64,000 nucleotides of DNA from Candidatus Latescibacterota bacterium (GCA_965237675.1 OZ250150.1:2528001-2592000); one strand, 5' to 3'; counted from the stretch's first letter, positions 21,615 through 40,880 are shown. The notes: generated by a model not told the origin, from the sequence alone. A program made the numbers and translations.

Positions 21615-21660
21615 GACGTATACGCAGCGCGCCGTCTCTCGTTAGGATGGGAATGGCCGG

Positions 21661-24480: not shown

Positions 24481-24969
24481 ATGGCAAAGACCGCCGCGGA
24501 TAGCAAGGCGAAGTTTCAGCCGTACCACGACGAGTTCGATTCGCTCAGGAAGGGACTGAAGAAAATGGCCTGGGCAAAGGACTGGAATTTCAAAGCGGAG
24601 ATGTTCGGAGAGCCCAGGATCCGGGGCGCGTCCATTCGAATGTGGAAGAAGCGCTGGCCTGAAGAGATCCACTTCGAGAGCTGGGTCGGGAATGCCGATA
24701 TTGAACGCGGCAGCGCGACGCTCGCATTTCATCTCGAGACACCGCTGGGCGACTTCGGCGTCCGGCGCAACGAATTCAACCGGCTGCTGATTGAGCGCGG
24801 GGCAGAGATGATGGGCGATTGGAAGGGATTTACCCTGTCGCCCAGGTCGTTCCAGACCATCAAACGCCATGTCCGTTTTGAACAGGGTAAAATCGCGGAA
24901 GCGCTAACACCCGAGTTCAGCCGGCTACAGCGTCTGGGCGAGCCCATTGACCAGGCTCTGAACCTGTGA
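24481..24969 (+). CDS. Hypothetical protein
   Basis: 162 aa ORF with host-like codon usage, same strand as neighbours; no family recognised. Confidence 0.6.
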   Translation: MAKTAADSKAKFQPYHDEFDSLRKGLKKMAWAKDWNFKAEMFGEPRIRGASIRMWKKRWPEEIHFESWVGNADIERGSATLAFHLETPLGDFGVRRNEFNRLLIERGAEMMGDWKGFTLSPRSFQTIKRHVRFEQGKIAEALTPEFSRLQRLGEPIDQALNL

Positions 24970-25102
24970 ATAGCGAGCGAGGCCAGCGGCCCTCGGTTCA
25001 TTGATGCCCGGCCACGCCGATCCGCGATCAATTTGCGAGAAGAGATGCGCGCCGCCGGATGAAGGCGACCGGTTCCCGACGTTCAAAGAAAAGGAGTTGA
25101 AG

Positions 25103-26698
25103 ATGCGGAATTTCCTTCTGTTCGCCTTATCGACCGGCTCGATGCTTGCGCTGGTGACAATGGCTGCCCGGAAATCGGGCAGTCCAGCGGCGCAGGGGAG
25201 CCAGACCTCTGAGACGGGCGGAATCACCACGACCGCGCCGGCGATGATGACGGGCCGGAACGGATGGCGCGTGGAGCCGTTGTTTACGGTGGGGGAAGAG
25301 GTCGACGGGTACCGTCCGCCAGGCATTCTGGATGGGATCGGCGCCATGGAAATCCGGCCGGGCGTGGTCCGCATCCTGGTCAACCATGAATTGGATGCTG
25401 AGGACGGGTACGCGTACAGCCTCGGTAACCGTACGGAACTGACCGGCGCGCGGGTGAGCTATTTCGATCTGGATGCCAACACCAGGAAACTCCTGGATGC
25501 GGGTCTGGCCTACGACAGGGCGGTGGACAAAGCCGGCCGCGAGGTCACGGACCCGTCGCAGATCCACGAGGGGAACATTGAGGGTAGCGAGAAGGACGGT
25601 TTCGATCGCTTCTGTTCCAGCAACCTTTTCACCGCGGGAGAGTATGGCCTTGCGGACGACGTTTATTTCTGTGGCGAAGAGGTCACCGACGGGCTGGCGC
25701 ATGCGCTGGATATCCGCCGCCGCGCCATTTACGCATTGCCGTGGCTGGGGCGCGGCACGTGGGAGAACGTGACCCTGTTGGACACGGGCGACAGCGACAA
25801 AGTGGCCGTTCTGCTGGGAGACGACCGGCGGGGCGCGCCGCTGTACCTCTACGTGGGACGGAAAGGGACGGGCGGCTTCCTCGAGCGCAACGGCCTGACA
25901 GGCGGCGATATGTTCGTCTGGGTCGCGAACAACGGCGACAGGACACCGGAGGATTGGAACGGGACGAAAACGAGCCGCGCCGGGAGGTTGGTCAGGATCA
26001 ATATTCATTCACCGGATCGGGCGGGCAGGGCCGGGTACGACGAACTGGGCTTTGCGACACAGGCGAAACAGGATGAATTGGTCGGCGCGGTGGGCGGGTT
26101 CCGCTTCTCGCGCCCGGAGGACGTGGCGACGAACCCGGAGCGCGGTACGCAGGCCGTGATGGCCTCGACGGGGCACGGAAGTGCATACCCCTCGGACGAC
26201 TGGGGAGCGACCTATGTCATCGACGCGGACATCGGCGCGATGACCGCGTCGATCCGAATCCTCTACGATGGCGACGATGCCGGCGACGGGCAATTCACGC
26301 ATCCGGACATGGGCCTGCGCAACCCGGACAACCTGGACTGGGCGGACAACGGGATGATCTACGTTCAGGAGGACCGGTCCACCCGGAAGGCGACCTTCGG
26401 CAAAAAAAGCGGCATCGAGGCGTCCGTATGGGAAGTGAACCCCGCCACCGGAAAGCTGACACGGATTGCCGTGATCGACCGCTCCGCGCTGCCTCCCGGA
26501 CAGACGGATTCGGACCCCACCGACCTCGGCGACTGGGAATCGTCGGGCGTTCTGGACGTGACCAGCCTTTTCACCACCGCACCCGGCGAGGTGCTCCTGT
26601 TTGGCAACGTCCAGGCCCACAGCGTCCGGGATGGAGACATAAATAAACACGACCTCGTCCAGGGCGGACAGATCGTGTTCTTCTCGAAGACGCGGTGA
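25103..26698 (+). CDS. PhoX-like (DUF839) alkaline phosphatase
   Basis: LVNHE, RFCS, GRGTWEN, FSRPED, NPDNL, QED, WESSG, NVQAH; RBS AAGGAG before ATG 25103; signal peptide. Confidence 0.8.
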   Translation: MRNFLLFALSTGSMLALVTMAARKSGSPAAQGSQTSETGGITTTAPAMMTGRNGWRVEPLFTVGEEVDGYRPPGILDGIGAMEIRPGVVRILVNHELDAEDGYAYSLGNRTELTGARVSYFDLDANTRKLLDAGLAYDRAVDKAGREVTDPSQIHEGNIEGSEKDGFDRFCSSNLFTAGEYGLADDVYFCGEEVTDGLAHALDIRRRAIYALPWLGRGTWENVTLLDTGDSDKVAVLLGDDRRGAPLYLYVGRKGTGGFLERNGLTGGDMFVWVANNGDRTPEDWNGTKTSRAGRLVRINIHSPDRAGRAGYDELGFATQAKQDELVGAVGGFRFSRPEDVATNPERGTQAVMASTGHGSAYPSDDWGATYVIDADIGAMTASIRILYDGDDAGDGQFTHPDMGLRNPDNLDWADNGMIYVQEDRSTRKATFGKKSGIEASVWEVNPATGKLTRIAVIDRSALPPGQTDSDPTDLGDWESSGVLDVTSLFTTAPGEVLLFGNVQAHSVRDGDINKHDLVQGGQIVFFSKTR

Positions 26699-26784
26699 GC
26701 ATCGTGTAGGAAGTGATCAGTATTAATTGGTGGTCGGCGGCATCTGCCCCGCGACCATAGCTCTGAGTCACTCCCCAACGTCTT

Positions 26785-26809
26785 GTAGGGGCGTCCCTTG
26801 TGGGCGCCC
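26785..26809 (+). repeat. GTAG-family REP palindrome
   Basis: GTAGGGGCGTCCCTTGTGGGCGCCC. Confidence 0.8.
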
Positions 26810-27164
26810 TGCCTCAGATCGGGCTTCCGTAGCGTTCTGCGTCGTGGCGGCATTGGTTTTCAAAATGGGGACGCTGGTATCTTGCTCGCACAGGCTGGCA
26901 TCAGATTTTCAAGGAAGCAATGTTAGTCGTAGCAAGGCAACGCTATGTCAACAACGAGAAAGAAGGGGAAGCACAAGAGAGGCCGTCCAGATGTCAAACC
27001 GTCGTCTGAAGCAGTCGACGAACTACCGGAAAACGTAAAGCGGGCGCCATTGAGCCCACGGCAAAGAGTACCGGGCGAGTGGAAGTATCTCGATCGGAGC
27101 CGGTGAGGGGTAACTGATCCTTGCGTTATTTGGACTCACACTACTACCGTGAGCAGGTATAGAT

Positions 27165-30100
27165 ATGTCAGGCCGTTTATTTACGGATTATTTCCTCACG
27201 GATGGCATCAAGGACACCGACGAATGGAAATCCTCGGTTGAGGATGTGGAGGCGTTTACCACATTTAGAGACAGCTTAGGCCAGCGTTACGCGGCCCTCT
27301 GTCGTTCCGGGGATCCAAACGAGGCGGTAACCGAGCAGGAGCTGATCCGACCGGTTCTGGAGTTGCTGGGGTGGACGCACTATCTGCCCCAGCAGGGCAC
27401 GGCTCGCAACGAGGATATTCCCGACCATCTGCTTTTCGCCGATGCCGACTCCAAGCAGCGCGCCTCCGCGGAACGCAACGCGGTTGACCGCTTCCGGAAC
27501 GCTGCCGTAGTGCAGGAGAGCAAGCGCTTCGGGCTGTCCCTGGACGACCGTAACAAGGACGATAGATCCCAGTCGAGGACGCCGCATGGCCAGATTCGCA
27601 GGTACCTCTCGACGGCCGATATCGAGTCGGAGGGCCGAATTCGCTGGGGAATGCTGACTAATGGCAGAGTTTGGCGTCTCTACGATCAACGTGCCCGGCC
27701 CCGAGCGACCGGTTACTTTGAAGCCGATCTCGAAGATCATCTAAAGCCTGAACGAGAAGACCACTTACGGGTTTTTTATCTCTTGTTTCTCCGTGAGTCA
27801 TTTGTACTTCATAAGGGTGCCACGGCGACGTTTCTTGAATCGGCGCTTGACGAAGGGCGTCGCTACGAGGAAGAGGTCGCGCAGGACATTTCCGGGGTTG
27901 TATTCGATCGTGTGTTTCCCGATCTGGTTGAGGCGCTGGCCAAAAAGTCTGGCGAAACTCTCCCAGAATGCCGGGAGGCAGCGCTGATTCTTCTCTATCG
28001 CTTGTTCTTCGTGCTCTACGCGGAGGACAGGGGCCTTCTGCCCGTCCACGATTCGCGTTACGACGACTATGGCCTGCGTAAGCGGGTGCGCGACGATATC
28101 GCTGGCAGGATGGCTGATGAAGACACCTTCTCCTCCATTGTTACCAACTACTACGGTCGGCTTGTCGATCTCTTTCAAGTGATCGATAAAGGCGATCCGT
28201 CTATCGGACTTCCGGCCTACAATGGGGGACTGTTTGCGCCAGAAGCCGCTCCAATACTAGAACGGATCCGACTAGCGGACGCGGACATCGCTCCTATCGT
28301 CTATGACCTCAGTCACACGGGTAATCGGCGGGACGAGCGCCGATTTGTCAATTACCGTGATATGTCCGTGCAGCAACTCGGCTCAATCTACGAGCGGCTC
28401 CTAGAACACCAGCCTGTATGGGACGACAACGGCAAGATCGTGACCCGACCCAATCCATATGCGCGCAAGGACAGCGGCAGGTTTTATACGCCGCAGGAAC
28501 TGGTGGATCTAATCGTGGACCGCACTCTAAAACCGCTGGCTGAGGAGCGACTCAAAGCCTTCGAAGACAAGGCCGCCGCGCTCAAGAGCGACCCCAGGCC
28601 AAAGTTCGAACGACGGGCTGAACTTGAGCGGCTCGATCCGGCCGAAGCGGTGCTTGAATTAAAGGTCCTGGACCCGGCCATGGGAAGCGGCCATTTCCTG
28701 GTTACCGCATTGGACTTCCTGTCCGACTGCATCGCTGAATTGATCGAATACGTCCCTGTTGTACCCGAGTGGCTGAATGGCGCCTATGAGTCACCCCTGG
28801 TCAAACGCGTGGAGTCGATTCGCGGCGAAATCATACGTCGAGCTGAAGAATTGAGATGGGTGTTGGACGAGGAGCAACTTAATGACCAGTCCATCATTCG
28901 GCGAATGGTGCTAAAACGGTGCATCTACGGGGTGGACAAGAATCCCTTGACCGTGGAGTTGGCAAAAGTGTCGCTTTGGCTGCACAGCTTTACAGTGGGA
29001 GCACCTTTGTCCTTCCTCGACCATCATCTTCGCTGTGGCGACTCATTGCTCGGCCTGAAGGTGTTCCAAGGACGTAAGGATCTGGAAACATTGGGTGGGG
29101 GCCTTTTTGCCGGTTCCGCCATCGCGGGAGCCGAGACCGCTACGACTGGAATGCGGCGCATCGAAAGGATGTCCGACGCGGACGTGGCCGAAGTGCGGGA
29201 GTCAGCGACGTTGTTCCACGTGGTGGAGGGTACAACCGCGGACCTACGCGGTTTGCTCGACTTCCTTTGCGCCCACCGATGGTTGACCGGAGGAATGAAG
29301 AAGAAGGAAAGGAATGCTTTCGTGGCGCCGTTGGTGATGACTCTCGGCGTGTATCAAAAGAACGCGTACAAGCTGCTAGCCCGTGGGCCGAAATATGCGG
29401 TGGACGGTTCCCCCAAGCCCGGCGATGCCGACTGGACGGCGTTTCGCGAGCAGTGGCGGGATGCACGAGCCGTCGCCGATCAGGAAGGCTTCCTCCACTG
29501 GGAGTTAGCCTTTCCGGGGGTTTGGCACGATTGGCAAAAAACCCGCCCGCAAGGCGGTTTCGACGCCGTGATCGGCAATCCGCCGTGGGACCGCATCAAG
29601 CTGCAGGAGGTGGAGTGGTTTGCAACGCGCGACCCCGAACTCGCTCACGCGCCGACGGCAGCCGCCCGGCGGACGGGCATCCAGCGATTGCGGGACCATG
29701 GATCGCTATTTACGGCCGAGTTCGACGCCGCCAGGACGCGGTCGGAAAGCCTTGCCCGGATGGTTCGATCCTATGGCGATTACCCGTTACTGGGCGGCGG
29801 CGACGTCAATCTGTATTCGGTTTTCGTCGAACGGGCTATGAGCCTTATCAAGCCTGACGGTATAATCGGCCTGCTGACGCCGTCAGGCATTTATGGCGAC
29901 AAGACTGCAGCCCGCTTTTTCAAGTCGGTGTCCACGAGCGGACGGGTAGGTGGCCTGTTTGATTTTGAGAACAAGAAAATTTTCTTCAAGGACGTTCACG
30001 CTTCGTTTAAGTTCTGCGCACTCATTCTTGGCGGACAGGAACGGAAGTTCGACCAGGCCGATTGCGCCTTTTTCCTGCACGACACGGAAACGATCCAGGA

Positions 30101-31196
30101 TGAGGACCGCTGCTTTCCATTGACGCCCGCGGACTTCGCCCGAGTGAACCCGAATACGGGCACTGCTCCCGTGTTCCGCAGCCGAAGAGACGCCGAGATC
30201 ACCCGCCGCATCTACAAGCGGCACCCAGTGCTGGTGGACCGCTCCATGGGTGACGAGTCACGCGCTTGGCCGGTTAAGTACGTTCGCATGTTTGACATGA
30301 CTAACGACTCGCACTTGTTCAACACCGGTGAGCAGCTCAAAGCCGACGGCTTTTACCCTGTGCAGGGCAATCGTTGGATGAAGGGTAAGGAGTTGTATTT
30401 GCCCTTGTACCAGGGCCGAATGATCCATCAGTTTGACCATCGGGCTAACTCTGTTCGAATCAACCCAGAAAGTACACACAACCCCTATCTCAGTGAGGAA
30501 GTGACCGAAGCAGAGCACGCAGATCCAAAATTCTCTCCACAAGCCCAGTATTGGGTGCCGGCCTCTATAGTGGAAAAGACTCTGTCCCAGAATCAAGGGA
30601 ACGGGTTGGGATTCAGGGATATCGCCCGTTCCACTGATGTGAGAACCGTAATTGCTACCGTTGTACCGTGGGCTGGTTATGGCAATAAGGTTCCGCTACT
30701 CATCAGCGAGGATGCTGTGTGTGCCACATGTCTTGTGGCGAACCTTAATGCTTTTTCCTTGGACTTCGTCGCACGGCAAAAGATCCAAGGTACGAGCTTA
30801 AATCTCTACATCCTTGAGCAACTCCCCGTCATCGCGTCTGCAGCCTACGACCGCAATTTCGGTTCTATCACTGCCCGTGACCTCGCCCAGGATCACGTCC
30901 TTCGCCTTACCTACACAGCCCACGACATGGCACCCTTCGCCCGTGACCTCGGCTATGAAGTTCCGCCTTTTGTCTGGAATGAAGAGGAACGCCGTCACCT
31001 TCGCGCACGGCTCGACGCGCTCTACTTCCACCTATACGGGCTGTCGCGCGACGACGCTGGGTACATACTTGACACCTTTCCAATTGTTCGCCGAGAAGAC
31101 AATAAAGCCTTCGGCCGCTACCGCACCCGCGAGATGATTTTAGCCTACATGAACGCCCTCGATGCCGGAGATACGGAGACGGTGATGGATGTCTAA
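27165..31196 (+). CDS. Type IIG (Eco57I-like) restriction endonuclease-adenine methyltransferase fusion
   Basis: N-terminal PD..ESK nuclease and LTNGRVWRLY; YNGGLF, LGSIYERLL, FYTP, VLDPAMGSGHFL (motif I), GNPPW (motif IV); C-terminal TRD. Confidence 0.9.
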   Translation: MSGRLFTDYFLTDGIKDTDEWKSSVEDVEAFTTFRDSLGQRYAALCRSGDPNEAVTEQELIRPVLELLGWTHYLPQQGTARNEDIPDHLLFADADSKQRASAERNAVDRFRNAAVVQESKRFGLSLDDRNKDDRSQSRTPHGQIRRYLSTADIESEGRIRWGMLTNGRVWRLYDQRARPRATGYFEADLEDHLKPEREDHLRVFYLLFLRESFVLHKGATATFLESALDEGRRYEEEVAQDISGVVFDRVFPDLVEALAKKSGETLPECREAALILLYRLFFVLYAEDRGLLPVHDSRYDDYGLRKRVRDDIAGRMADEDTFSSIVTNYYGRLVDLFQVIDKGDPSIGLPAYNGGLFAPEAAPILERIRLADADIAPIVYDLSHTGNRRDERRFVNYRDMSVQQLGSIYERLLEHQPVWDDNGKIVTRPNPYARKDSGRFYTPQELVDLIVDRTLKPLAEERLKAFEDKAAALKSDPRPKFERRAELERLDPAEAVLELKVLDPAMGSGHFLVTALDFLSDCIAELIEYVPVVPEWLNGAYESPLVKRVESIRGEIIRRAEELRWVLDEEQLNDQSIIRRMVLKRCIYGVDKNPLTVELAKVSLWLHSFTVGAPLSFLDHHLRCGDSLLGLKVFQGRKDLETLGGGLFAGSAIAGAETATTGMRRIERMSDADVAEVRESATLFHVVEGTTADLRGLLDFLCAHRWLTGGMKKKERNAFVAPLVMTLGVYQKNAYKLLARGPKYAVDGSPKPGDADWTAFREQWRDARAVADQEGFLHWELAFPGVWHDWQKTRPQGGFDAVIGNPPWDRIKLQEVEWFATRDPELAHAPTAAARRTGIQRLRDHGSLFTAEFDAARTRSESLARMVRSYGDYPLLGGGDVNLYSVFVERAMSLIKPDGIIGLLTPSGIYGDKTAARFFKSVSTSGRVGGLFDFENKKIFFKDVHASFKFCALILGGQERKFDQADCAFFLHDTETIQDEDRCFPLTPADFARVNPNTGTAPVFRSRRDAEITRRIYKRHPVLVDRSMGDESRAWPVKYVRMFDMTNDSHLFNTGEQLKADGFYPVQGNRWMKGKELYLPLYQGRMIHQFDHRANSVRINPESTHNPYLSEEVTEAEHADPKFSPQAQYWVPASIVEKTLSQNQGNGLGFRDIARSTDVRTVIATVVPWAGYGNKVPLLISEDAVCATCLVANLNAFSLDFVARQKIQGTSLNLYILEQLPVIASAAYDRNFGSITARDLAQDHVLRLTYTAHDMAPFARDLGYEVPPFVWNEEERRHLRARLDALYFHLYGLSRDDAGYILDTFPIVRREDNKAFGRYRTREMILAYMNALDAGDTETVMDV

Positions 31197-31286
31197 GCGA
31201 TATATGCCGCCATCGTTTGCAGGCAAGGATAACTTTCAATTTGCAAAGAAGTTAGATATAGTATAGGTTGGTCAGGGGGGAATATC

Positions 31287-31484
31287 ATGGACGAAAAAAG
31301 TGAGACAGAACCCGTCCCGGATGACTACCTGAAGATGTTGAAAAAGGTCAAAGAGCAATATCAGCAATACGTGGAAGTCAGCGAGCTGTATGAGTTGCCG
31401 GTCCAACCGGAGGAAGAACCGGTACAATATCAGCCTCCCAGCCCTGAATATCCTCTCACGACGAATAAAATATGCATCGGCTAA
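31287..31484 (+). CDS. Small acidic hypothetical protein (65 aa)
   Basis: ATG preceded by a purine-rich RBS; a diverged second copy at 32285-32486 supports a real gene family. Confidence 0.6.
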   Translation: MDEKSETEPVPDDYLKMLKKVKEQYQQYVEVSELYELPVQPEEEPVQYQPPSPEYPLTTNKICIG

Positions 31485-31499
31485 CCGGATCGAACATGC

Positions 31500-32282
31500 C
31501 TTCATCCAGCAATTTTGCATAGACGTGACGAGGTGCAGCATCCGCAAATCGTTCGCTGTTGAGGACGTCCAGGATCTGTGTGCGTTCCTGCTTCTCCAAT
31601 GCACGTGACGGCGTCGGTCGCTGCTTGGACAGGTTTTGTTCCGGTTTTTGCCGTGTCTCTCGGTGGCGGTAAACACTGGATCGAGGCACGCCCAACACCT
31701 GACAGGCACGGTCGACGTCTATGGCCAAAACCCCAGCTGTCTGTCTCATTTGCCGTCGGCCTTCTCGGTCACATCGTTGCCCAGCCCAAGCAACACCGAA
31801 AGTTTTTTTTGGACGTCGATGATGACTTCGGCCTGCTCCAGCTTTTTGGCAAGCCGCTCATTCTCAACGCGCAACCGGGCAAGCTCTTTTTCTGACGGAT
31901 CCGCCCCAGGACGGCCACGCTTCTTCGTTCCCAATTCCCCGGCTTCCCGCTGCCGTCGCCATTGGGTCAGACTGGAAGAATACAACCCTTCCCTGCGCAA
32001 GAGGGCTCCGATCTGTCCGGGCTGGGTACAGGCATCAGCCTGCTTCAGAATGCGCACCTTATAGGTCCTGGTGAACCGCCGTCGCTTGGCCTTGGGTACC
32101 ACCTCAGGATCCGGCACTTGATCCGCGCTGGCTGAAACCGACGGCTTGACCCCCGCTGCCTTCACCCCGTTTTGGGGCGACGTCTTTGCTGCTGTATCCA
32201 ACATGGTCTCGTGCTCCTTTGCCCTCTCGATTGCTCACTGATTTACGGTGGACCGTTGTCTCGCTAATATAGGCACAGAGGG
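31500..32282 (-). mobile_element. Truncated IS3-family element (orfA 31746-32204 intact, orfB cut after ~80 codons)
   Basis: orfA PDPEVVPKAKRRRFT...GALLRREGLYSS; orfB ACQVLGVPRSSVYR...LNSERFAD...VYAKLLDEG then lost; end sequence CCCTCTGTGCC...GAGACA near 32282. Confidence 0.85.
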
Positions 32283-32284
32283 TC

Positions 32285-32486
32285 GAGCAGAAACAGTGGC
32301 GGATGATTATCAAATGACGTCAGAAAAGGCCAAAGGACAATATCGGCAATACCTGGAAGTCAGCGAGCTCTGTGAGTTGGCGATGAATATGGAGAAGGAG
32401 TCAGTAAAATAAATGCCGCCCACCCCGGAACATCGTCTGACTACAAATGAAATTCGTATCAGCTAATCGGATCGAACATGCCTTCA
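32285..32486 (+). pseudogene. Degenerate second copy of the 31287-31484 micro-ORF and its 3' flank
   Basis: Shares GGATGA(C/T)TA, CAATATC(A/G)GCAATAC, GGAAGTCAGCGAGCT and GCTAA.CGGATCGAACATGCCTTCA with 31302-31504; lacks the start and has an internal TAA. Confidence 0.8.
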
Positions 32487-33058
32487 GGGAATGAACCTTT
32501 GGAAAGTTTCAAAGTAGAGGTTTCCATAGTGCCCAATCCCAGCTGGCTTGACCAAAATCTGATAAAGCGCCTACACGCCAACTCTAAGTAACCCTTGACT
32601 ACCTCCGAGACCGAGAATTATGAGCGCGTCGATTGACACCAATATCGGAAATATACTCGGTTCTGCTCGTGCCGAAGTCGATTCCCGAATGCTGGATCAA
32701 GCATTTCTAGAGACAAATGACTTCCGTGCGTTGAAAGACACAGACCACTTCAGCTTTGTCGTTGGGCGTCGGGGAACAGGAAAAACCGCTCTGTATCTCA
32801 ACCTAATGAAAGTGTTTCAGGATGATGATAGAGTCTTCTCTCACCACTTAATGCCGGAAGAACACGATGCGCTTGCACTCTTGAGTCTCCTTCACAGATA
32901 CGGCGTAGACGCTTATAATGAAATTAGGGCGACTGTACGTGTGCTTTGGCGTACATCGATGTTGATCACGGTTGCGAACGATTTATGCAGCCATTGGAAA
33001 TACGGTGCGAGCGCAGATGCGCAATGGTTAAGGAGCTATGTGGATGGAAAGAGAGGGC

Positions 33059-34483
33059 GGGATTGTGCCTATCTTAGTTGAAATAGAAGAGGCTCCGATG
33101 TAAATTGGATACGGCAGTCTCGACGAAGAAGACCGTATCCTCAACCAAAGGAGCCTGTGATGAAAAAAGTACCGTCGAACCTCCGTGAAGTCAAGTCGAA
33201 TAGGGATGCCGGGGTGACGTCTGGCGCCTTCCTGGGAGAAGCCCTGGAGGATGTTGACGTCCGTGTGGCATTGATCCAAGCGCTGATCCCGCTTGGTCTG
33301 GACGCTGTGGCAGAAATCTTGCAGCAAGAGGTTGCCGGGTTGACGGGCAAGAAACACAGTCGTAAAGCGGGCAAGACCCCGAATCGTCGGTGGGGCGCTC
33401 AACCGGGATCGGTGTATCTGTCGGATCAAAAAGTGCCCATTACGGTGCCCAGGGTGCGTGACGTGGAAGCCAATGAGGAAGTTCCTCTGGAGGTATATCA
33501 CCACTTGCAGCGACCCAGAAACATGGACGGAGGGTTGCTGCTGCGCGTGGTCAGCGGCATTGCGACGCGTTCTTACGCCAGTTGCGCAGAGGCGATACCC
33601 GAGGCGTTTGGCTTGTCTTCATCGAGTGTCTCGAGGCGGTTCATCAGGGCATCGGCGGCCAAGCTGAGACAGTTTCAAGAACGGTTTCTTTCGGGCTATG
33701 ACCTGGTGGGGCTGTTTATGGATGGCAAGACCTTTGCCGATCAGGAAATGATCATCGCCCTTGGCGTGACCATCGACGGGCACAAGATCCCGCTGGGGTT
33801 CGTGCAGGCCGCCAGCGAAAATGAGCGCGTGTGCCGCCAGTTTGTCGATTCGCTCATCGATCGCGGATTGCAGTATCACCAAGGGCTGCTTTGCCTCATC
33901 GACGGCTCAAAGGGCTTGTATAGTGCCCTCACAAAAGCCCTTTCCGGTTATGTCGCCATTCAACGCTGTCAGTGGCACAAACGGGAGAACGTGATCGCCT
34001 ATTTGCCCAAGACACAGCAGAGTGAGGTCAAGAAAGCGCTTCAAAGTGCCTACGACATGGACACCTACAAAGAAGCCAAAGCCGCGCTGTATGCCCTCAA
34101 GCCCTCCCTGACCCTGATGAATGCATCGGCCCTCAACAGCCTGGAGGAAGGGCTCGAAGAAACCCTCACCCTCCATCGCCTGGGACTGATGCCACAACTC
34201 AAGCAATCGTTTCGCACCACCAACTGCATCGAATCCCTCAACGCCATGATCGCACAGCGCACCCGTAATGTGAAACGATGGAACAACTCCGATCAGCGAT
34301 ATCGGTGGTTGGCAGCCGCGCTGTTGGATATCGAGCCCCGATTGCGGAGGATCAAAGGATACCGCTTTCTTCCCGTACTCAGACTTGCCCTACGCAATCA
34401 TCTCGCGCTCGATCATGACACGCAAAACGCTTTCGCCGCTGATTGAACGCCTCTGCTATTTCAACTAATAATAGTACTTGCCC
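33059..34483 (+). mobile_element. Complete IS256-family insertion sequence with 8-bp target duplication GAGAGGGC
   Basis: Imperfect IRs GGGATTGTGCCTATCTTAGTTGAAATAGAAGAGG / GGGCAAGTACTATTATTAGTTGAAATAGCAGAGG; TSD at 33051-33058 and 34484-34491. Confidence 0.95.
33157..34446 (+). CDS. IS256-family DDE transposase
   Basis: VPRVRD, FMDG, IDGSKGL, QRCQWHKRENV, RTTNCIESLN. Confidence 0.95.
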   Translation: MMKKVPSNLREVKSNRDAGVTSGAFLGEALEDVDVRVALIQALIPLGLDAVAEILQQEVAGLTGKKHSRKAGKTPNRRWGAQPGSVYLSDQKVPITVPRVRDVEANEEVPLEVYHHLQRPRNMDGGLLLRVVSGIATRSYASCAEAIPEAFGLSSSSVSRRFIRASAAKLRQFQERFLSGYDLVGLFMDGKTFADQEMIIALGVTIDGHKIPLGFVQAASENERVCRQFVDSLIDRGLQYHQGLLCLIDGSKGLYSALTKALSGYVAIQRCQWHKRENVIAYLPKTQQSEVKKALQSAYDMDTYKEAKAALYALKPSLTLMNASALNSLEEGLEETLTLHRLGLMPQLKQSFRTTNCIESLNAMIAQRTRNVKRWNNSDQRYRWLAAALLDIEPRLRRIKGYRFLPVLRLALRNHLALDHDTQNAFAAD

Positions 34484-36332
34484 GAGAGGGCTGCTCAAAT
34501 ACAATGAGCTTCAGCGATGTACCGCGATTCTAGACCAGCTTTCAATCGATGACTCGTATGTACAAGAAATTCCGGGCAAGATCGCCACGACATGCGAGGT
34601 AACCAAAGTTGACGAGGAAGTGCGGCGCGGCCTGGAGGGTGTCGGAGCGAGGGCAGTTTTCTTATTCGATGGCTTGGATGAAGGGTGGGTACCGGATCCA
34701 AGACCAACGGCGGTGCTTGGTGGTCTCGCAATAGCCGTCGCGGGGTTTGGTGATAAACAAATGCACATTCATGGTGAGCTATTCATAAGAGACAATATTT
34801 TTCGTCTAATGGCTACACTTGATCGTGATTTTTCCCGGCACATTGAAGGAAGTACACTGAGGCTGAACTGGACTCAGGACAGTTTGCTTGATCTTATCGC
34901 CAATCGATTACGTGTAGTATACGGACTTCCCAAGGTAGAAAACAATATTCGTATCTGGAACCGTTTCGCTCATAAGGAACTCAAGGAAAGACGGGGCTTT
35001 CAAAGATGTTTGCAGCATACTCTTTATCGACCCCGAGATCTGTTGGTACTTTTGAACCAAGCAGCATTGCACGCAGCTCGTGAAGGACGTCAGGGAATTA
35101 TCGAGACTGACATTGAGGAGAAATCAAAGCAAATTTCATCGGATAGGTTGACGGACCTACTGAGAGAGTATGAAGGTGTCTTCCCAGGGTTAAGGCTTAT
35201 CGTGAAAAGCTTCTTCCGCGTCCAGGCATTTCGGACAATGGCTGACGTGAGGTTAAAACTTGACAGTCTAATCCAAGACGAGTCCTTCCGCGTCCCTGAA
35301 TCCAGTGATATCGCGGTGTTAGGCACAAGTTCCCATATAATTGACGCTCTCTATAGTATTGGATTCTTGGGTTTAGAAGATCAAGCAACCGGAACGATAT
35401 CATTCTGCCACGACGGTGCGCTTTCAAGCATTTCAGATGTGGCCGAGAGCCAACGAATTGCCATTCATCCATGCTACTGGAAAGCTCTTGACACTATTGA
35501 AACAAGCATTTCAACTGACGTGGTAGTGGAGATATACGACGATTATAAAACACAAGGCATTCCTCAGATGGTCGACATGCGTGCGCGAAGGCTCGGCCAG
35601 CTTGTTACTGAATTGCCCAACTATCCAGAAGGACGTGATGGCGCTCAAGACTTCGAAAAATGGGTCCTGCGAGCTTGTCAGATTCTGTTCGCCGGCAGCC
35701 TGGGCAACTTTGAACTAAATCCTGCGCCTGATGGTATTCAAAGGCGCGATGTGGTAGAAACAAATCTGGCGGAGCGGGGATTCTGGCGGCGGGTACTGAA
35801 TGACTACGCGTGTCGGCAGGTGACATTTGAAATAAAGAACTTTGCGACACTTAAGCCTGACGATTTTCGTCAGGCGCTGTCGTATAGTGGTAAGCAATAC
35901 GGAAGGCTTGTATTTATTGTTTATCGGAGTAACGCCGAAGGATTGGACAACAAGGATCGTGGATGGGTTAAAGAGATGTGGGACCGGCACGATAAATTGA
36001 TCGTGACAATTCCAAGTGCGATACTCATTCGATGCCTAAAGAAAAGCAGGAACCCCAAGAGGTTGGATTATTCTGAGCGTGCATTGAATAAGAGGATAGA
36101 TACATTCGAACGACGGTATATTGATGCGCGTCATATGCCAATCCGGCGCGGCAAGAGCCGAAAAAAGAAACGGGCAACACTATCTCAACCTGAAAAATTC
36201 AATTCATCGTGAAATCCCATTTCCGCTTTCGAGCGGATTCTCGCGGACGAAAAAAACCTGCTATCACGTGTGATGTGTGCCTACCCCCTCTCCAATGAGG
36301 TTGCGCAAGTGACGAACTAAAGGAGGTTTTCG

Positions 36333-36656
36333 ATGCCCATTGACGACCAATACGTCAAAAACCTACCGGACATCTACCGCGATGTACTGTCAAGTTTTCC
36401 GAGTTTCGATTCGACCCGCATTGCTGGCGACGGCCTGGCTTACCAATCGCTGTATTCGGCTTTGGCGGATGAAAAGAAGGGATACACCCTCGGTCAAATA
36501 AAGAAGGCATGCGAAAACATGGCTGAGGTGGGTCTTATGGTGATTAAACATAGGATATTCGCTTGCCCGACACCAAAAGGGGAAGAGTTGATTTCCGCAA
36601 TAACGGGCCGCACGACACCTGTCTCGGACATACCACCCATCGAAGCCCCGCCATAG
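36333..36656 (+). CDS. Hypothetical protein, possible winged-helix
   Basis: Strong RBS AAGGAGG; helix pattern followed by GLMVIKHRIFACPTPKGEEL (wing/TxKG-like). Confidence 0.6.
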   Translation: MPIDDQYVKNLPDIYRDVLSSFPSFDSTRIAGDGLAYQSLYSALADEKKGYTLGQIKKACENMAEVGLMVIKHRIFACPTPKGEELISAITGRTTPVSDIPPIEAPP

Positions 36657-36739
36657 GTTGGTGGACACGTCCGGCGTATGGAAACTCAGCGCGTCATATA
36701 CAAACGACTGTACTATTCGACACGCAGGAGGACCCAGCA

Positions 36740-38278
36740 ATGACCACAACCCCCGGCTCAAAAAACCTCGAGTTGTCCGTGACCAACTTTGGTCCCATTG
36801 CCAGGGCAATTATTGACCTGCGCCCGCTTACAGTATTCGTAGGTCCCAGCAACACTGGCAAATCCTATATGGCCGTTCTGACTTACGCGTTACATCAGTT
36901 TTTCAATGCCGGCTCCAGTAATGCCGATTTTATCATACCCGACACGCAACTTTTAGCCGGGTGGATGCAAAGCCCAACTTTGTCGAAAAATGACATTTCA
37001 CCTATTTATAATTTGTCAAAGCAAATGTTTTTAGACTTAGAAAAAGACGTTTCAATTGATTTACCGGAGCCTATTGCAGATCTGGTGCGCAAATCTCTCG
37101 AAAATGTCCCGATATTAAGCAAAATTTTCGATAAAGAGATCACAAGATGTTTCGGGATAGATAAGGCCGAAAGTCTGATTCGCCATTCAAGTGGTGGCAG
37201 GGCTGGATTTTCATTACATGGCAATGGTTCAAAGGAAGCCGGCCGCAACCTCGCGTTTGGGTACGATTTTACAGTGACAAAGCGAGGAACTGAATTAGAT
37301 GTGTTGATTCCAAAAAATATGCCCCTGCAAATTGACCGGAAGAGTATCATAGACCCTACGTTGACCTGGTTGAACTCTGCCGAGGCAAGGAAAAAGGGCA
37401 CAGGAGAACAGTTGGTTGAAGGTGCCATGATTGGATTGCTTAGAATGCTTGCACGTGCCGTTGTTCCTGGCATCGTAGGCCCATTGAGTCGTCCGGCGTA
37501 TTATCTCCCCGCTGACCGGGCTGGCGTTATGCACGCCCATCAGGTGGCAGTGCGGGGTTTGATTGCAAGCGCCTCGCGGACCGTACTGCGCCGTGATTCT
37601 CCAATGCCAGTGATCTCCGGAGTACTCGGCGACTTTCTGGAACAGCTTGTTGCACTGGCCTCTTCTTCAGCGCGTCGGGAACCTGAAGGGGACAATGACC
37701 TCGCTCTGCGTATGGAACAGGCACTGTTGCGGGGAACTGTCCGTGTTGAACGGTCGGAAATTGAATACCCATCGTTCGTCTATCGCCCGGATGGCTGGAA
37801 TAAGGACCTGCCGCTGATGAATGCGTCTTCCATGGTATCAGAGTTGGCCCCCGTCGTGCTGTACCTGCGCCACGTCGTTCAGCCGGGCGACCTGCTTATC
37901 ATAGAAGAACCCGAGTCGCACTTGCATCCGGCGATGCAAGTGGAATTTGTCCGCCAACTCGCAGCGACGGTCAGGTCAGGCGTCCGAATCCTCATTACGA
38001 CTCACAGCGAGTGGATACTTGAAGAGTTGGCCAATCTAGTTCGGTTGTCGGAACTTTCCGCGGAGAATCGGGAGGGAATTGATTTCGCCGATTTGGAACT
38101 CTGTCCAGAAGAGATAGGCGCGTGGCTTTTCGAACGAGGACCGGAGATTGGTGGTTCAGTGGTTCGGGAAATACCGCTAGACGTTGAGTCGGGGACATTC
38201 CCAGCAGGCTTTGGGTTGATTACAGAAGGTCTCTATAACCGATGGGGCGATATTTCCAACCGCATTGGGGAAAGATAA
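36740..38278 (+). CDS. ABC/SMC-like AAA ATPase (AAA_15/AAA_21 type)
   Basis: NFGPI, LTVFVGPSNTGKS (Walker A), YLPADRAG, ASSMVSELAP (signature), IIEEPESHLHP (Walker B), ITTHS (H-loop); RBS AGGAGG before ATG 36740. Confidence 0.9.
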   Translation: MTTTPGSKNLELSVTNFGPIARAIIDLRPLTVFVGPSNTGKSYMAVLTYALHQFFNAGSSNADFIIPDTQLLAGWMQSPTLSKNDISPIYNLSKQMFLDLEKDVSIDLPEPIADLVRKSLENVPILSKIFDKEITRCFGIDKAESLIRHSSGGRAGFSLHGNGSKEAGRNLAFGYDFTVTKRGTELDVLIPKNMPLQIDRKSIIDPTLTWLNSAEARKKGTGEQLVEGAMIGLLRMLARAVVPGIVGPLSRPAYYLPADRAGVMHAHQVAVRGLIASASRTVLRRDSPMPVISGVLGDFLEQLVALASSSARREPEGDNDLALRMEQALLRGTVRVERSEIEYPSFVYRPDGWNKDLPLMNASSMVSELAPVVLYLRHVVQPGDLLIIEEPESHLHPAMQVEFVRQLAATVRSGVRILITTHSEWILEELANLVRLSELSAENREGIDFADLELCPEEIGAWLFERGPEIGGSVVREIPLDVESGTFPAGFGLITEGLYNRWGDISNRIGER

Positions 38279-38760
38279 TGCCAGCGACGGTCGTAGAATC
38301 GGTCCGGCGAAAAACTGATCCGCAATGTCACGCGGCAACGTGCAGAGAAGGTAAATGCTCGCTATCGCTGCGGGAAGTACCAGAGCCGAACGTGCTAATC
38401 AGTTTGGAACACGAAGCGGCGCCGGTTGAAACAAATAAACCACGTTGCGACTATTTGTTCGTGGCTGACAACGACGAAGATGATCGGCCGTGGGTTGCGC
38501 CAATAGAACTAACCGGAAGCAAAGCTGACTTTTCCAAGTTTTGGCCACAATTAGACGCCGGCGCCGCTATCGCAGACCAATTACTACCGCAGCAACTCAT
38601 GGCTGTAAGGTTTCGACCTATTGCAGTTCACAATGGCATTCACCGGAATGAAGTCAACAAATTTCGGGATTCTCGCAACAAGGTTCGATTTCGAGACAGA
38701 ACTGTGTCAATTGAACTGACGCGTTGTGGCTCGCCATTGGCAAAAGCATTGAGCGGATGA
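38278..38760 (+). CDS. Putative PD-(D/E)xK-like nuclease partner of the ATPase
   Basis: TAATG overlap with the ATPase stop; CREGKC, RCDYLFV, WVAPIELTG, QL motifs. Confidence 0.55.
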   Translation: MPATVVESVRRKTDPQCHAATCREGKCSLSLREVPEPNVLISLEHEAAPVETNKPRCDYLFVADNDEDDRPWVAPIELTGSKADFSKFWPQLDAGAAIADQLLPQQLMAVRFRPIAVHNGIHRNEVNKFRDSRNKVRFRDRTVSIELTRCGSPLAKALSG

Positions 38761-38839
38761 ACAAAGCCTTCGAGAACGATATTCAAGGAAATTTAGAGAA
38801 GGCGTCCGCTATACAACGCATTCATGGAGACACGATACG

Positions 38840-39106
38840 ATGAAGAGAACGTTGACCATCGACTACGGCGATGAGGTCCTGCTGGCCTTGGGATATTCAC
38901 CCAGGCAGTTCAGCGAAGAGGCCAGGATCCTCGTCGCCGTCAAGCTCTACGAGTTGGGACGGTTGTCCTCGGGGGCGGCAGCCAAGCTGGCAGACATTCT
39001 CAAACCATTGTTTCTGATAAAGTTAGCTGACTATGGTGTTGATGCCTTCCATCTGACCGAGGAAGACATCGAACAGGACTTGGCCAGTGCCCGACGTCAT
39101 TTGTGA
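38840..39106 (+). CDS. UPF0175-family antitoxin-like protein
   Basis: AVKLYELGRLSSGAAAKLA...FL.KLADYGV...EQDL. Confidence 0.8.
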   Translation: MKRTLTIDYGDEVLLALGYSPRQFSEEARILVAVKLYELGRLSSGAAAKLADILKPLFLIKLADYGVDAFHLTEEDIEQDLASARRHL

Positions 39107-39145
39107 TACTTCTCCTATCCAGTACCTGCACCAGGGCGACGTGAT
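39087..39145 (+). pseudogene. N-terminal stub of DUF3368 (PIN-like) toxin
   Basis: GTG-PDVICDTSPIQYLHQGD overlapping the UPF0175 3' end; homology ends where the R-M remnant begins. Confidence 0.65.
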
Positions 39146-39259
39146 CCCATCGTCGGACGCCAGGACGAGGCCGCCTTCGGCCGTTACCTCATCCGCAAGA
39201 TGATTTTGGCATACATGAACGCCCTCTCGGCAGCGGATACGGAGACGCTGGTGGACGTG
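39146..39259 (+). repeat. Diverged copy of the last ~38 codons of the type IIG R-M gene
   Basis: Translates PIVGRQDEAAFGRYLIRKMILAYMNALSAADTETLVDV versus PIVRREDNKAFGRYRTREMILAYMNALDAGDTETVMDV at 31080-31193. Confidence 0.9.
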
Positions 39260-39385
39260 TGCCTGCGCTCCGTGCCAATATATAGTGAGGTTTTGTTTTC
39301 GCGTTCTTCAGGCAGCTGAGCTCCTGAAAGTCCGTCAGCAGCTCGATTCCAGGGTCTCGGCCCGAATCTCGGCGTCGACAATTGA

Positions 39386-39508: not shown

Positions 39509-40450
39509 TCACGGCGTCTGAGCCCCGATTGTTTCGACGTAGACCGAGAACAGCGACTGGGAGCAGGTCATGAACAGCCTGTTCTTTTTTGCGCCGCCGA
39601 AGCAGAGGTTCGCGCAGGGCGCCGGGAGGTGGATTTTCCCGATGAGGGTGCCGTCCGGTGCGAAGCAGTGCACGCCGTCGTACCCATCTCCGGCCCAGCA
39701 GGCCCCCGCCCACAGGTTGCCGTCCACGTCGGTGCGGATCCCGTCCGCCGAGGCGGGTTCCATGTTGATGAAGACGCGGCCATTTGCGAGGCGGTCGCCA
39801 TCGACGTCGAAAACACGGATGTGGGTGGGGTATTCGGGCCCATCGGAGCGTCCGGTGTCGACAATGTAGAGCAGGGACTCATCGGGGTTGAAACAGAGCC
39901 CGTTCGGCCGCCGGAAGTCTCCCGCCACCACGGTGGCTTCCCCGGTGTCCGGATCGAGACGGTACACGTTGGCGGCGTTTTCGAATTCGGCCCGATGCCC
40001 TTCGTAGTTGATCAGAATGCCGTAACCGGGGTCCGTGAACCAGATCGATCCATCCGACTTGACCACGACGTCGTTCGGCGCATTCAGCGGCCTGCCCTCA
40101 AACCGGTCCATCAATACCGTGTTCGAACCGTCGTATTCCGTCCGGGTCACGCGGCGGGTGTCGTGTTCGCACGAAACCAGCCGTCCCTGGCGATCGCGGG
40201 TATTGCCATTGGTATTGTTCGACGGTTTGCGAAAGGCCGAGACGTCTCCCGTCTCTTCTTCCCATTTGAGGATGCGGTTATTGGGGATGTCGCTGAAAAG
40301 CAGATAGCGGCCGTCTCCAAACCATACCGGACCTTCGAGCCAGCGGCCGCCGGTCCAGAGCATTTCGACGGCGGCGTTCGCCAGTTTGTACTTTGCAAAG
40401 CGGTCGTCGAGTACCTCAATCCGGCTGTCGGGATATCTCACAAGTTCCAT
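39509..40450 (-). CDS. SMP-30/gluconolactonase/LRE-family protein
   Basis: WLEGPVW, FSDIPNNRI, NGNTRDRQGRL, LNAPND, PNGL, DGIRTD; start ATG 40450 (MELVRYPD). Confidence 0.9.
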   Translation of the reverse strand: MELVRYPDSRIEVLDDRFAKYKLANAAVEMLWTGGRWLEGPVWFGDGRYLLFSDIPNNRILKWEEETGDVSAFRKPSNNTNGNTRDRQGRLVSCEHDTRRVTRTEYDGSNTVLMDRFEGRPLNAPNDVVVKSDGSIWFTDPGYGILINYEGHRAEFENAANVYRLDPDTGEATVVAGDFRRPNGLCFNPDESLLYIVDTGRSDGPEYPTHIRVFDVDGDRLANGRVFINMEPASADGIRTDVDGNLWAGACWAGDGYDGVHCFAPDGTLIGKIHLPAPCANLCFGGAKKNRLFMTCSQSLFSVYVETIGAQTP

Positions 40451-40494
40451 ATTTTCGCCCCTGTCACGACAATCTCTCATGTAATAGCCTCTGT

Positions 40495-40880
40495 TCACCG
40501 CGCAAGCGCGCAGGTTGCCGCCAGCTTGATCCGCCGGCCCTTCGGATTGTGCGTCAGGCCGTCGAACCCCCAAGTCCTGACGCCGGGCCAGTTGATCAGA
40601 TCGATCCGCACACGCTCGATGTCCCCCGGAACGCAGGAACCGTCCGTGACATTGTCTGGACATGAGATGCGGTCCCACACCGCGTTCAATTTCCTCGCGT
40701 CGCCGTTATAACCTTCTCCGTAGAGGCGCACGACGTCGTTCTGTGGCAGTGTGGCGATCACGTTTTTGAAATCGTAACGCCAGAAGTCGAAGGTCACGTC
40801 GACGTCCGGGTCTGCAATCAGCACCACACCCACGTTATAGGTAAGCGCCTCCTCGGGTTTGAGGTCGGCGTTTCCACAAG
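40495..40880 (-). pseudogene. Internal fragment of a TonB-dependent receptor
   Basis: GNADLKPEEALTYNVGVVL...DFWRYDFKNVI...INWPGVRTWGFD barrel strands with no signal peptide, plug or C-terminus. Confidence 0.7.

Follow-up and report, generated by a model that had tools for sequence, protein, structure and literature searches.

Orphaned 3' ends of a type IIG restriction-modification gene beside variable defence cargo in a Candidatus Latescibacterota bacterium and at related loci

How does a second copy of the end of a restriction-modification (R-M) gene come to lie beyond a block of defence genes? The question is raised by a stretch of 64,000 nucleotides (nt) from a Candidatus Latescibacterota bacterium (GCA_965237675.1 OZ250150.1:2528001-2592000), which we call the window. 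It contains a predicted type IIG R-M gene. The feature under study (27,165-39,259) runs from the start of that gene to the end of the second copy of its tail. An earlier note on this DNA saw in the conserved tail a recombination anchor for new R-M alleles and downstream defence genes. We find that the second copy is probably what remains of an earlier R-M allele, and that orphan tails of this kind recur beside related R-M genes.

The repeated R-M gene end

As the earlier note had reported, the last ~38 codons of the R-M gene recur at 39146-39259 without a frameshift. The copy within the gene is called T1, and the orphan copy is called T2 (Table 1). They align ungapped and in the same frame, with 75% nucleotide identity over 114 nt (73.5% over 117 nt) and 27/38 identical amino acids (aa). 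The match is significant by blastn (E 9.45e-19, with an 86-nt core at 83%) and by tblastn (E 5.4e-11). T2 is the sole second match of the R-M gene in the window. The pair is one of three repeat pairs in all that were retrieved when the window was compared with itself by blastn. The insert between the copies is 7.95 kb, and the longest perfect identity that they share is 15 nt. T2 has no usable start codon, and at the position homologous to the R-M stop it has no stop codon.

T2 is no copy of the resident tail. Relics were compared at the nucleotide level with 72 R-M tails. The nearest match of T2 is the tail of L034, a syntenic locus described below (93/114), and the resident tail (85/113) ranks 8 of 72. 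Compared with the tails of 120 homologous proteins, T2 agrees with the resident one at 27/38 positions and with the best of the others at 29/38. Like tails of other lineages, it contains 'QDEAAF'. Its YRTR motif is altered; the motif is present in all 40 homologue tails that were printed. The ratio of nonsynonymous to synonymous differences (pN/pS) between T2 and the resident tail is 0.32; for pairs of functional tails the median is 0.29 and the 95th percentile 0.56. Since the value lies near this background, most of the divergence between T1 and T2 would have arisen between working alleles.

The earlier note had suggested that a new R-M allele arrived here, and it probably did. T2 is nearer to the L034 allele than to the resident one. 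A micro-open reading frame (micro-ORF) behind the R-M gene is also duplicated, in a diverged form that the earlier note did not mention. The micro-ORF repeats (31306-31504 and 32288-32486) bracket a fragment of an IS3-family insertion sequence (IS), and the repeat ends exactly where the truncated orfB of the IS begins. This argues for a replacement with an arbitrary right junction. Self-blastn retrieved no further copy of the IS3 fragment in the window.

The ~95 nt that follow T2 are presumed to be the native downstream DNA of the old allele. On the other side, the relic seemed at first sight to reach upstream into the end of the UPF0175 gene, where 'RRHL…YF' echoes 'ERRHLRARLDALYFHLY' of the R-M protein. 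This was rejected by a shuffle test, in which the 65 nt before T2 were compared with 68 tail-upstream regions and 202/300 shuffles reached the observed maximum score.

Orphan tails at other loci

Homologue loci, cited here by L-numbers, were retrieved in one scan of species-representative genomes. It gave 80 loci from many phyla, with a best identity of 76%. For the relic survey, 30 full-length homologues were made into a profile of 1341 positions, and the 80 loci and the window (81 sources), translated in six frames, were searched with it. A cross-check by tblastn had the same outcome. At least 1 kb of downstream sequence was available in 77/80 loci and at least 9 kb in 63/80.

Orphan R-M 3' ends were recovered from seven of the 81 sources: the window, L010 (two pieces), L013, L023, L027, L036 (two pieces), and L043. 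L034 is probably an eighth source, with an orphan tail cut by the end of the locus. The earlier note had proposed a search for such remnants, and had held that invariant cargo with no remnants in relatives would indicate a one-off duplication. The loci retrieved here have remnants and variable cargo.

All nine orphan 3' pieces lie downstream of the main gene and on the same strand, and all but one L010 piece reach the gene end. Under a null model, P is 2e-4 for side and strand and 4e-9 for nine 5' ends in the last 11.8% of the gene. At the nucleotide level, the distances from the 5' ends to the stop are ~27, 33, 38, and 53 codons, with three more of ≥56, ≥87, and ≥116 codons, and they reach ~160 codons overall. 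The relics are 78-90% identical to their resident tails (75% in the window), and in several relic/tail pairs perfect identity persists over 23-40 nt. Their pN/pS ranges from 0.32 to 0.58 and is 0.41-0.58 in L013, L023, and relic a of L036. At the other loci the repeats are 90-348 nt and the inserts 0.4-8.7 kb. The smallest insert is one 121-aa gene.

Two simpler patterns were considered and rejected. A fixed insertion site at codon 1305-1310 had been read from the profile coordinates, and the boundaries vary at the nucleotide level. Random deletion of a tandem second R-M copy is at odds with the size and polarity of the relics.

(a) L010. It contains three overlapping stacked pieces that are 77-82% identical. 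The newest copy has also been truncated, at profile position 1265.

(b) L036. T1 of this locus and relic a share 10 nt beyond the stop. Relic b, the oldest, is followed by a 91-nt spacer and a micro-ORF, an arrangement common to T1 of the window, L025, and L034. Because relic b keeps this native downstream context, two successive insertions would have occurred between the frame end and the old tail, each duplicating the tail. Tail, spacer, and micro-ORF are contiguous in L025, which resembles an empty site in a different species. The cargo contains a single helix-turn-helix (HTH) gene and then a 221-aa gene.

(c) L027 and L043. Both relics carry frameshifts or stops. The cargo of L027 encodes Dsr2 (PADLOC, 3.3e-148). 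That of L043 contains ORFs with no assigned function.

(d) L013 and L023. The L013 relic is an intact 97-codon ORF with an ATG, and its cargo contains ORFs with no assigned function. L023 encodes a weakly Dsr1-like protein of 1192 aa, a DUF2283 protein, a PD-Lambda-2_B-like HTH protein, and a Panacea-HTH protein.

Outside the window, 66 ORFs from nine loci were scanned with Pfam, and with PADLOC in addition. None of them is an integrase or transposase, and the relic-bounded cargo of L010, L013, L023, L027, L036, and L043 contains neither. A clean empty site was sought through relic-flanking DNA in the L027/L028 pair and in a Nitrospirales set. None was found there, and these regions are shuffled mosaics. 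Among predicted proteins, 1813 short ones comprise the tail region only, many of them on megabase contigs; they are indistinguishable from frameshift or contig-end pieces.

Several other repeats were observed near these R-M genes. The sole orphan piece from elsewhere in the gene is in L029 (5984-6070). It is an N-terminal fragment of 29 residues (profile 153-181). About 1 kb, with a 180-aa ORF and a Fic-domain gene, separates it from the intact gene downstream. L036 contains, just before relic b, a 167-nt copy (88%) of the 5' part of the downstream M19 dipeptidase gene (12574-12735 vs 14333-14499). The same event series seems also to have duplicated part of an adjacent core gene. Three alphaproteobacterial loci contain direct repeats of ~250 nt that are 92-96% identical and bracket ~4 kb immediately upstream of the R-M start codon (L056, 2599-2847/6692-6932; L060, 1788-2044/6710-6965; L062, 2612-2868/6695-6950). 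They may be a mirror-image arrangement at the R-M 5' side. L055 (11157-11353/13783-13968) and L035 (11456-11688/15675-15900) contain direct repeats, 85-93% identical, that start just past the R-M stop and bracket 2.4-4 kb. This is a duplication of the same kind, of downstream DNA and not of the tail.

A hotspot between two core genes

Two loci from records titled Candidatus Latescibacterota, L009 and L034, are syntenic with the window. Window positions 18694-24144 match both at 78-83% nucleotide identity, and L009 also matches the gluconolactonase flank. The ORF at the left boundary is probably the IF-1 (infA) gene, judging from the aligned L009 ORF (Pfam eIF-1a/IF-1, 8.8e-21). The hotspot extends from 24144 to ~39370 in the window. 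This is beyond the 27165-39259 of the earlier note, and the variable region begins further left, at ~24144. L009 and L034 encode a type II N6/N4 methyltransferase where the window has its variable left part. The G+C content is 0.45-0.53 over 32.5-39.5 kb, compared with ~0.57-0.65 in the flanks.

The core proteins of the window, L009, and L034 are 84.8-86.4% identical (93.8% over the last 48 aa of the gluconolactonase), compared with 67.8-74.0% for the R-M proteins. The R-M alleles have diverged at a fixed locus. The right-hand cargo (the 107-aa gene and UPF0175) is common to all three genomes, and the genes beside the R-M tail differ in each. The window contains the Sll1717-family gene and an ATPase pair there. 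L034 contains PDC-M03A/B (HipA-like) modules and an ATPase pair. L009 encodes a DpdA-like protein (1.6e-97), a GajB-like UvrD helicase, and a Cas4-like nuclease. The L009 genes (11240-16772) are an unusual trio directly after the R-M gene: the DpdA-like protein has an N-terminal DUF6884 region, and the Cas4-like nuclease is of the PD-(D/E)XK type.

The same flanks hold different defence content in these relatives, as in other core-gene-flanked hotspots. This supports a reading of window 24.1-39.4 kb as a hotspot of defence genes with a conserved core gene on each side. The integrase-free hotspot that the earlier note had envisaged is supported by the wider set as well: relics are present in 7/81 sources, the cargo differs each time, and the three syntenic genomes differ beside the tail. 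Its proposal that the cargo genes act in defence is supported by PADLOC matches to Dsr2 (3e-148), DpdA-like, PD-T4-4_A-like, and PDC-M03 proteins.

At the right end, UPF0175 in L034 is followed by 12 nt and then by R-M-tail-like sequence up to the end of the locus. The joint between cargo end and relic is probably common to the window and L034. L009 contains the same 37-nt spacer as the window and then continues straight to the flank, with no relic and without the ~95 nt after it. It is a deletion derivative or has a different history.

Origin of the orphan tails

The explanation that we favour, and regard as fairly probable, is that T2 is the orphaned tail of an earlier allele, left when defence DNA was joined behind the R-M frame. 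The recombination would have been homologous on the left and imprecise on the right, as in homology-facilitated illegitimate recombination (HFIR). The left side would lie in the conserved R-M gene or in upstream core DNA. DNA with defence genes would have joined immediately behind the R-M reading frame, and the new joint would have restored or retained a complete R-M gene. The old tail, with its native downstream DNA, would have been pushed to the far side of the cargo, so that T2 would mark the former R-M end beside the gluconolactonase gene. Further cargo turnover may later have been concentrated beside the R-M tail, and the IS3 and IS256 elements would have inserted. The R-M gene and micro-ORF may then have been replaced by the present allele, with a right junction within IS3 that left the old micro-ORF relic. 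We infer this order of events and the HFIR-like mechanism from the variable boundaries, the stacked alleles of L010, and the allele divergence at a fixed locus. The footprint of such an event would be that of an insertion with long target duplication across a stop codon, in the sense of Kobayashi's group.

Several points weigh against this explanation. Arbitrary right junctions predict some relics much longer than 160 codons, and there are none, so something focuses the junctions near the gene end. The relics of L036, L043, and L027 are nearest, among the 72 tails, to their own resident tail. This match, with the 10 nt past the stop in L036, fits an in-situ target duplication at least equally. 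N-terminal relics upstream are nearly absent (one case, in L029), which one-ended recombination leaves unexplained. L009 has no relic but does have cargo, and it provides no empty site for the window event. On such short pieces, ratios of nonsynonymous to synonymous substitution rates (dN/dS) are weak evidence on pseudogene status. The variable regions contain 115 pairs of diverged direct repeats in 1.52 Mb, of which 8 involve the R-M tail. The apparent preference for the tail may be partly ascertainment, since R-M relics were searched for.

A second explanation, which we consider unlikely, uses the conserved tail as a homologous crossover site, as the earlier note had proposed. A circle with a tail copy and cargo would integrate by one RecA-dependent, Campbell-type crossover and duplicate the tail, or a cassette of tail, cargo, and relic would pass between genomes by double crossover with the gene body and the relic as arms. 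The relic would then belong to a mobile cassette that needs no recombinase. The Campbell-type crossover gives an intact gene, cargo, and a 5'-truncated tail on the same strand, as observed. Conservation in the tail is among the highest in the protein (0.86-0.91 for residues 1241-1320 and 0.82 for the final 23, compared with ~0.8 overall), and the relic/tail pairs with 23-40 nt of perfect identity suit such a crossover. The polarity would follow because only fragments that include the 3' end keep the R-M gene intact. The junction shared by the window and L034 indicates that cargo and relic can travel or persist together, but it is equally explained by common descent, both flanks being syntenic. 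The window copies, however, share at most 15 nt of perfect identity. The L036 unit would be a circle of ~500 nt with only ~90 nt of homology. The newest L010 copy is truncated and overlaps an older one at 77%, which is not a product of crossover within homology. If the tail were one arm of a double crossover, a single hybrid copy would result, not a pair, and the model still requires a founding illegitimate event. The tail as a crossover anchor is not borne out by the variable relic boundaries, the layers of L010, or the L036 block that extends 10 nt past the stop. An imprecise right junction or a target duplication accounts better for these features.

We give slightly less weight still to a true insertion with long target duplication, which seems improbable. 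Unlinked cargo would be captured at a staggered break spanning the stop, 90-400 nt of the tail would be duplicated by repair synthesis, and in the window the R-M gene would have been replaced later. The own-tail matches of L036 (both relics), L043, and L027 are in its favour, and the 10 nt past the stop in L036 suit it. The pN/pS of 0.41-0.58 in L013, L023, and relic a of L036 fits one copy drifting unconstrained. The repeats also match the class described in the consulted part of PMC2853133, which are >30 bp, variable, often span stop codons, and lack mobility genes. The same part of that paper offers double-strand breakage only as a suggestion for the mechanism. Target duplication leaves unexplained the layered 77-82% pieces and truncated newest copy of L010 and the micro-ORF repeat around the truncated IS fragment in the window. 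It also gives no reason for repeated hits on the R-M tail.

Site-specific integration is very improbable. The R-M 3' end would be the attachment site of an island that carries its own copy of the tail, with the integrase lost or encoded elsewhere. The topology resembles attL/attR repeats at tRNA 3' ends, and several profile-defined relic starts cluster at positions 1302-1311. At the nucleotide level, however, the boundaries range from ~27 to >116 codons, which is not the constant site that an attachment site would give. The relic-bounded cargo of six loci encodes no recombinase, the window contains only secondary IS elements, inserts are as small as one 121-aa gene, and there are no tRNA genes in the 64-kb window.

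We give hardly any credence to functional relics, that is, tail-only small proteins or a regulatory or promoter element acting on the R-M enzyme or downstream genes: the intact L013 ORF, the 1813 tail-only proteins, and the 75-90% identity to functional tails are in keeping with them, but the L027 and L043 relics are frameshifted or have stops, the window relic has no start codon and an altered YRTR motif, relic lengths differ widely, and frameshifted genes or contig ends would give rise to short predicted proteins just as readily.

Comparison with known systems

Insertion with long target duplication is said to have been described by Nobusato et al. in 2000. In the consulted part of Furuta, Abe & Kobayashi 2010 (PMC2853133), the class has a gene-sized insert, no mobility gene, and variable direct repeats of >30 bp, and it occurs in many phyla. 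The repeats often span a stop codon and the target gene is spared. A type IIG R-M gene is among the H. pylori targets, and tRNA targets are mentioned. The window is like this class (repeats >30 bp, insert <20 kb), with repeats of 114 nt and an insert of 7.95 kb. No mobility gene accounts for the insertion in the window or in the six loci. As far as that text goes, the insert there is the R-M system and the target is any gene. Here, in contrast, the R-M gene is the target and the cargo is non-R-M. Here the copies have 75-90% identity instead of being nearly the same, and stacks of two or three occur at some loci. Those of the window appear to stem from different alleles.

Rhs C-terminal displacement was reportedly described by Jackson et al. 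in 2009. For type VI secretion system (T6SS) effector-immunity arrays and Rhs loci, the part of Kirchberger et al. 2017 (PMC5361080) that was consulted proposes an HFIR-like displacement that leaves orphaned 3' parts. Our loci are like these in several respects: a conserved upstream part would be the anchor, incoming DNA would replace the resident 3' part and move old material downstream, repeated events would build arrays, and no integrase takes part. According to that text, the displaced pieces there are variable toxin tips with immunity genes, which may still be useful. Here the displaced piece is a conserved tail and apparently a dead relic. Unlike at T6SS/Rhs loci, selection would act on the unrelated cargo that the copies enclose as its payload.

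Defence hotspots that have core-gene flanks and no integrase appear in the consulted parts of papers on the core defence hotspots (cDHS) of Pseudomonas aeruginosa (PMC10250203), E. coli defence islands (PMC10121019), and chromosomal hotspots of horizontal gene transfer (PMC5635113). As in those, a fixed interval contains different defence systems in the window, L009, and L034. At the R-M hotspot a conserved accessory gene inside the interval marks a preferred insertion point, and relics record past events.

In tRNA/tmRNA islands and integron arrays, the duplicated 3' end of the target brackets the insert, the newest insert lies nearest the target, and tandem accretion leaves serial relics. There a site-specific integrase acts at a constant crossover site, whereas no integrase was found here and the boundaries vary.

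Implications

The kind of event had already been described. What is new is the recurrent use of one conserved R-M tail, across phyla, as an entry point for defence genes that are not R-M genes. For defence islands that lack integrases, gene entry has mostly been deduced from the core genes on either side. In our loci, scars mark the insertion point and can be read as strata. Orphan R-M tails bracket Dsr2, DpdA-like, and PD-T4-4-like cargo in at least five phyla. If a large survey agrees, relics would be a simple signature of recently gained defence genes, among them ones with no annotation, for example the module of the 107-aa gene, ATPase, and 172-aa protein. They would also be a natural set of junctions for study of the recombination mechanism, and a connection of R-M genes with defence-island assembly would become testable. 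If the relics reflect merely occasional sloppy recombination, they are a tidy example of a known process.

A bolder idea, in which we place little confidence, is that the R-M tail is a docking site that needs no recombinase, an 'attI without an integrase'. It would capture defence cassettes serially, with the newest beside the gene. Read-through from the R-M promoter could express them, and the tail relic with which each cassette leaves would let host RecA move it to any genome that has a family member. If this were true, the R-M gene would be a cross-phylum platform for sharing defence genes.

Gene content of the window

ORFs of the window were annotated by scans of the Pfam, PADLOC, and NCBIfam libraries (Table 1).

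Table 1. Features of the hotspot and its borders (coordinates of the window)
Feature	Coordinates	Strand	Basis
Left core boundary: 94-aa ORF, IF-1 (infA)-like	23849..24133	+	Window 23286-24144 aligns with L009 2972-3829 (79%) and L034 2837-3681
Variable left part; PhoX-like ORF 25001-26698 (+)	24145..27164	.	No nucleotide match to L009/L034; Pfam PhoX 7e-11
Predicted type IIG R-M gene, intact, 1343 aa, endonuclease + methyltransferase fusion	27165..31196	+	Pfam; PADLOC; full-length match to 1341-position profile
T1, last 38 codons within intact R-M gene	31080..31193	+	Repeat search; blastn; tblastn
Micro-ORF, 65 aa, starts 91 nt past R-M stop	31287..31484	+	tblastn: L036 73%, L025 63%, L034 56%
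Truncated IS3-family element: orfA 31746-32204 and 5' part of orfB; left end cut at 31505	31505..32287	-	Pfam HTH_Tnp_1 1.7e-8; NCBIfam transpos_IS3 partial, both ORFs
Relic of older micro-ORF allele, 5'-truncated, internal stop	32288..32486	+	75% identical to 31306-31504; matches L025/L036/L034 micro-ORF regions
N-terminal part of Sll1717-family P-loop ATPase	32620..33081	+	NCBIfam NF047389 1.9e-15, profile 1-107, 56.9 bits
IS256-family IS, transposase 33157-34446, 20-nt terminal inverted repeats	33074..34468	+	Repeats 95% complementary; Pfam Transposase_mut 1.5e-35; NCBIfam transpos_IS256 4.8e-65
C-terminal part of Sll1717-family ATPase	34443..36212	+	NF047389 2.9e-46, profile 173-454; PADLOC PDC-M36A 1.5e-7
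107-aa gene	36333..36656	+	No Pfam/PADLOC/NCBIfam match; tblastn: L009 82%, L034 three copies 78-81%
AAA_15/AAA_21 ATPase, PD-T4-4_A-like	36563..38278	+	Pfam AAA_15 2.2e-21, AAA_21 7e-14; PADLOC PD-T4-4_A 6.7e-35
172-aa ATPase partner	38242..38760	+	No Pfam/PADLOC/NCBIfam match; adjoins ATPase also in L034 (48%), L013 (39%)
UPF0175-family antitoxin, right end of cargo	38840..39106	+	Pfam UPF0175 5.9e-23, 80.8 bits (cut-off 27.9); 85% aa vs L034
Spacer common to L009, not detectably R-M-derived	39107..39143	.	Aligned with L009 20713-20752; shuffle test
T2, orphaned 3' end (38 codons), probably of earlier R-M allele	39146..39259	+	Repeat search; blastn; tblastn; profile positions 1304-1341, E 2e-10
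~95 nt after T2, without counterpart in L009	39260..39355	.	L009 homology resumes ~39355-39370
Right core boundary: SMP-30/gluconolactonase-family gene	39509..40678	-	Pfam SGL 1e-51; last 48 aa 93.8% identical in L009

No integrase or tyrosine or serine recombinase was found among the window ORFs scanned. The IS3 and IS256 elements lie inside the cargo, and their ends do not coincide with the T1/T2 boundaries. The inventory in the earlier note stands in outline (accessory genes and IS elements with no integrase), and several of its identities are corrected below.

(a) Micro-ORF. It encodes 62-65 aa. In L025 (11153-11338), L034 (11176-11334), and L036 (13017-13202) it was retrieved with the 91-nt spacing unchanged and a motif conserved in the spacer.

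(b) Sll1717-family ATPase. What the earlier note had called an ATPase-nuclease is one Sll1717-family ATPase gene split by the IS256 element. The C-terminal part (158.5 bits) passes the 75-bit cut-off of the family. The N-terminal part (56.9 bits) falls under it because the IS splits the gene. The resemblance to PDC-M36A sits in the C-terminal domain of the ATPase itself. In silico removal of the IS256 gives one continuous frame of ~730 codons, so the insertion looks recent. No target duplication is evident at its insertion ends.

(c) ATPase and partner. The earlier note had listed an ABC ATPase pair. One member is a PD-T4-4_A-like AAA_15/AAA_21 ATPase, and the other is a 172-aa protein with no family assignment and no PADLOC match. 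The PD-T4-4_A match spans only profile positions 274-387 of 460. Homologues of the ATPase are found in L034 (56%, alignment from residue 53) and L013 (41%), and the true start is probably downstream of 36563.

(d) Module with the 107-aa gene. The 107-aa gene, the ATPase, and its 172-aa partner form a recurrent module, complete or partial, in the window (36333-38760), L034 (17190-19627), L013 (12684-14758, minus strand), and L009 (16976-17293). The 107-aa gene is 78-82% conserved, and the ATPase and partner are 39-56% conserved. L034 contains the 107-aa cassette three times, within repeats of 365-891 nt that are 90-94% identical. The module is a candidate for an uncharacterised defence system.

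(e) UPF0175. It had been taken for a toxin-antitoxin system and is a lone antitoxin. No toxin partner adjoins it; downstream there is the 37-nt spacer and then the relic. L009 contains an internally deleted copy.

The type IIG R-M gene and its family

The gene at 27165-31196 encodes a predicted type IIG R-M enzyme. It is a single polypeptide with a gamma-class N6-adenine methyltransferase domain, as found by Pfam (Eco57I 1e-19, 71.7 bits, cut-off 25.3; N6_Mtase 9e-8, 32.2 bits, cut-off 20.4) and PADLOC (REase_MTase_IIG PDLC03613 3.4e-80; DrmMI-like 4e-89). For the putative fused endonuclease, the N-terminal matches to HSDR_N (19.1 bits) and MmeI_N (19.3 bits) fall under the curated cut-offs, and the PADLOC type IIG models match over the whole length. 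The translation contains 'NPPW' and 'DPAMGSGHF', which we take to be the catalytic and S-adenosylmethionine (SAM) motifs.

The family is large. At least 7897 proteins are homologous to query residues 900-1343, and those listed are ~75% identical over that part. Three proteins (P0002-P0004) are 92% identical to that of the window, and one of them is on a 5.5-Mb contig. The tree built from 43 intact genes does not follow taxonomy, and the window protein is 71-73% identical to the eight closest genes in it. The solitary type IIG R-M gene moves readily between phyla. A conserved, family-wide partner gene was sought and rejected, the largest neighbour cluster being present in 7/81 loci. Companions are found in sub-lineages only (four loci have the micro-ORF and five have a 1185-aa gene).

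The protein is ~80% conserved along its length in the 30-sequence alignment, and the lowest block is residues 721-760. In L023, compared with the syntenic Nitrospirales loci L006, L021, and L024 (~10303-10667, codons ~1100-1215), there is no nucleotide alignment in 3/5 pairs, and the tail that follows aligns. The block may be a specificity-determining segment swapped between alleles. Frameshifts split several family members into two or more pieces (L034 6931-11062, L014, L024, L039, and L046). The R-M genes of L046 and L016 have no tail. The R-M gene often decays in place.

The window also contains, at 5486-7814 and 7876-10201 on the minus strand, two adjacent paralogues of ~750-760 aa. They are 76% identical over 2.3 kb and are unrelated to the relic.

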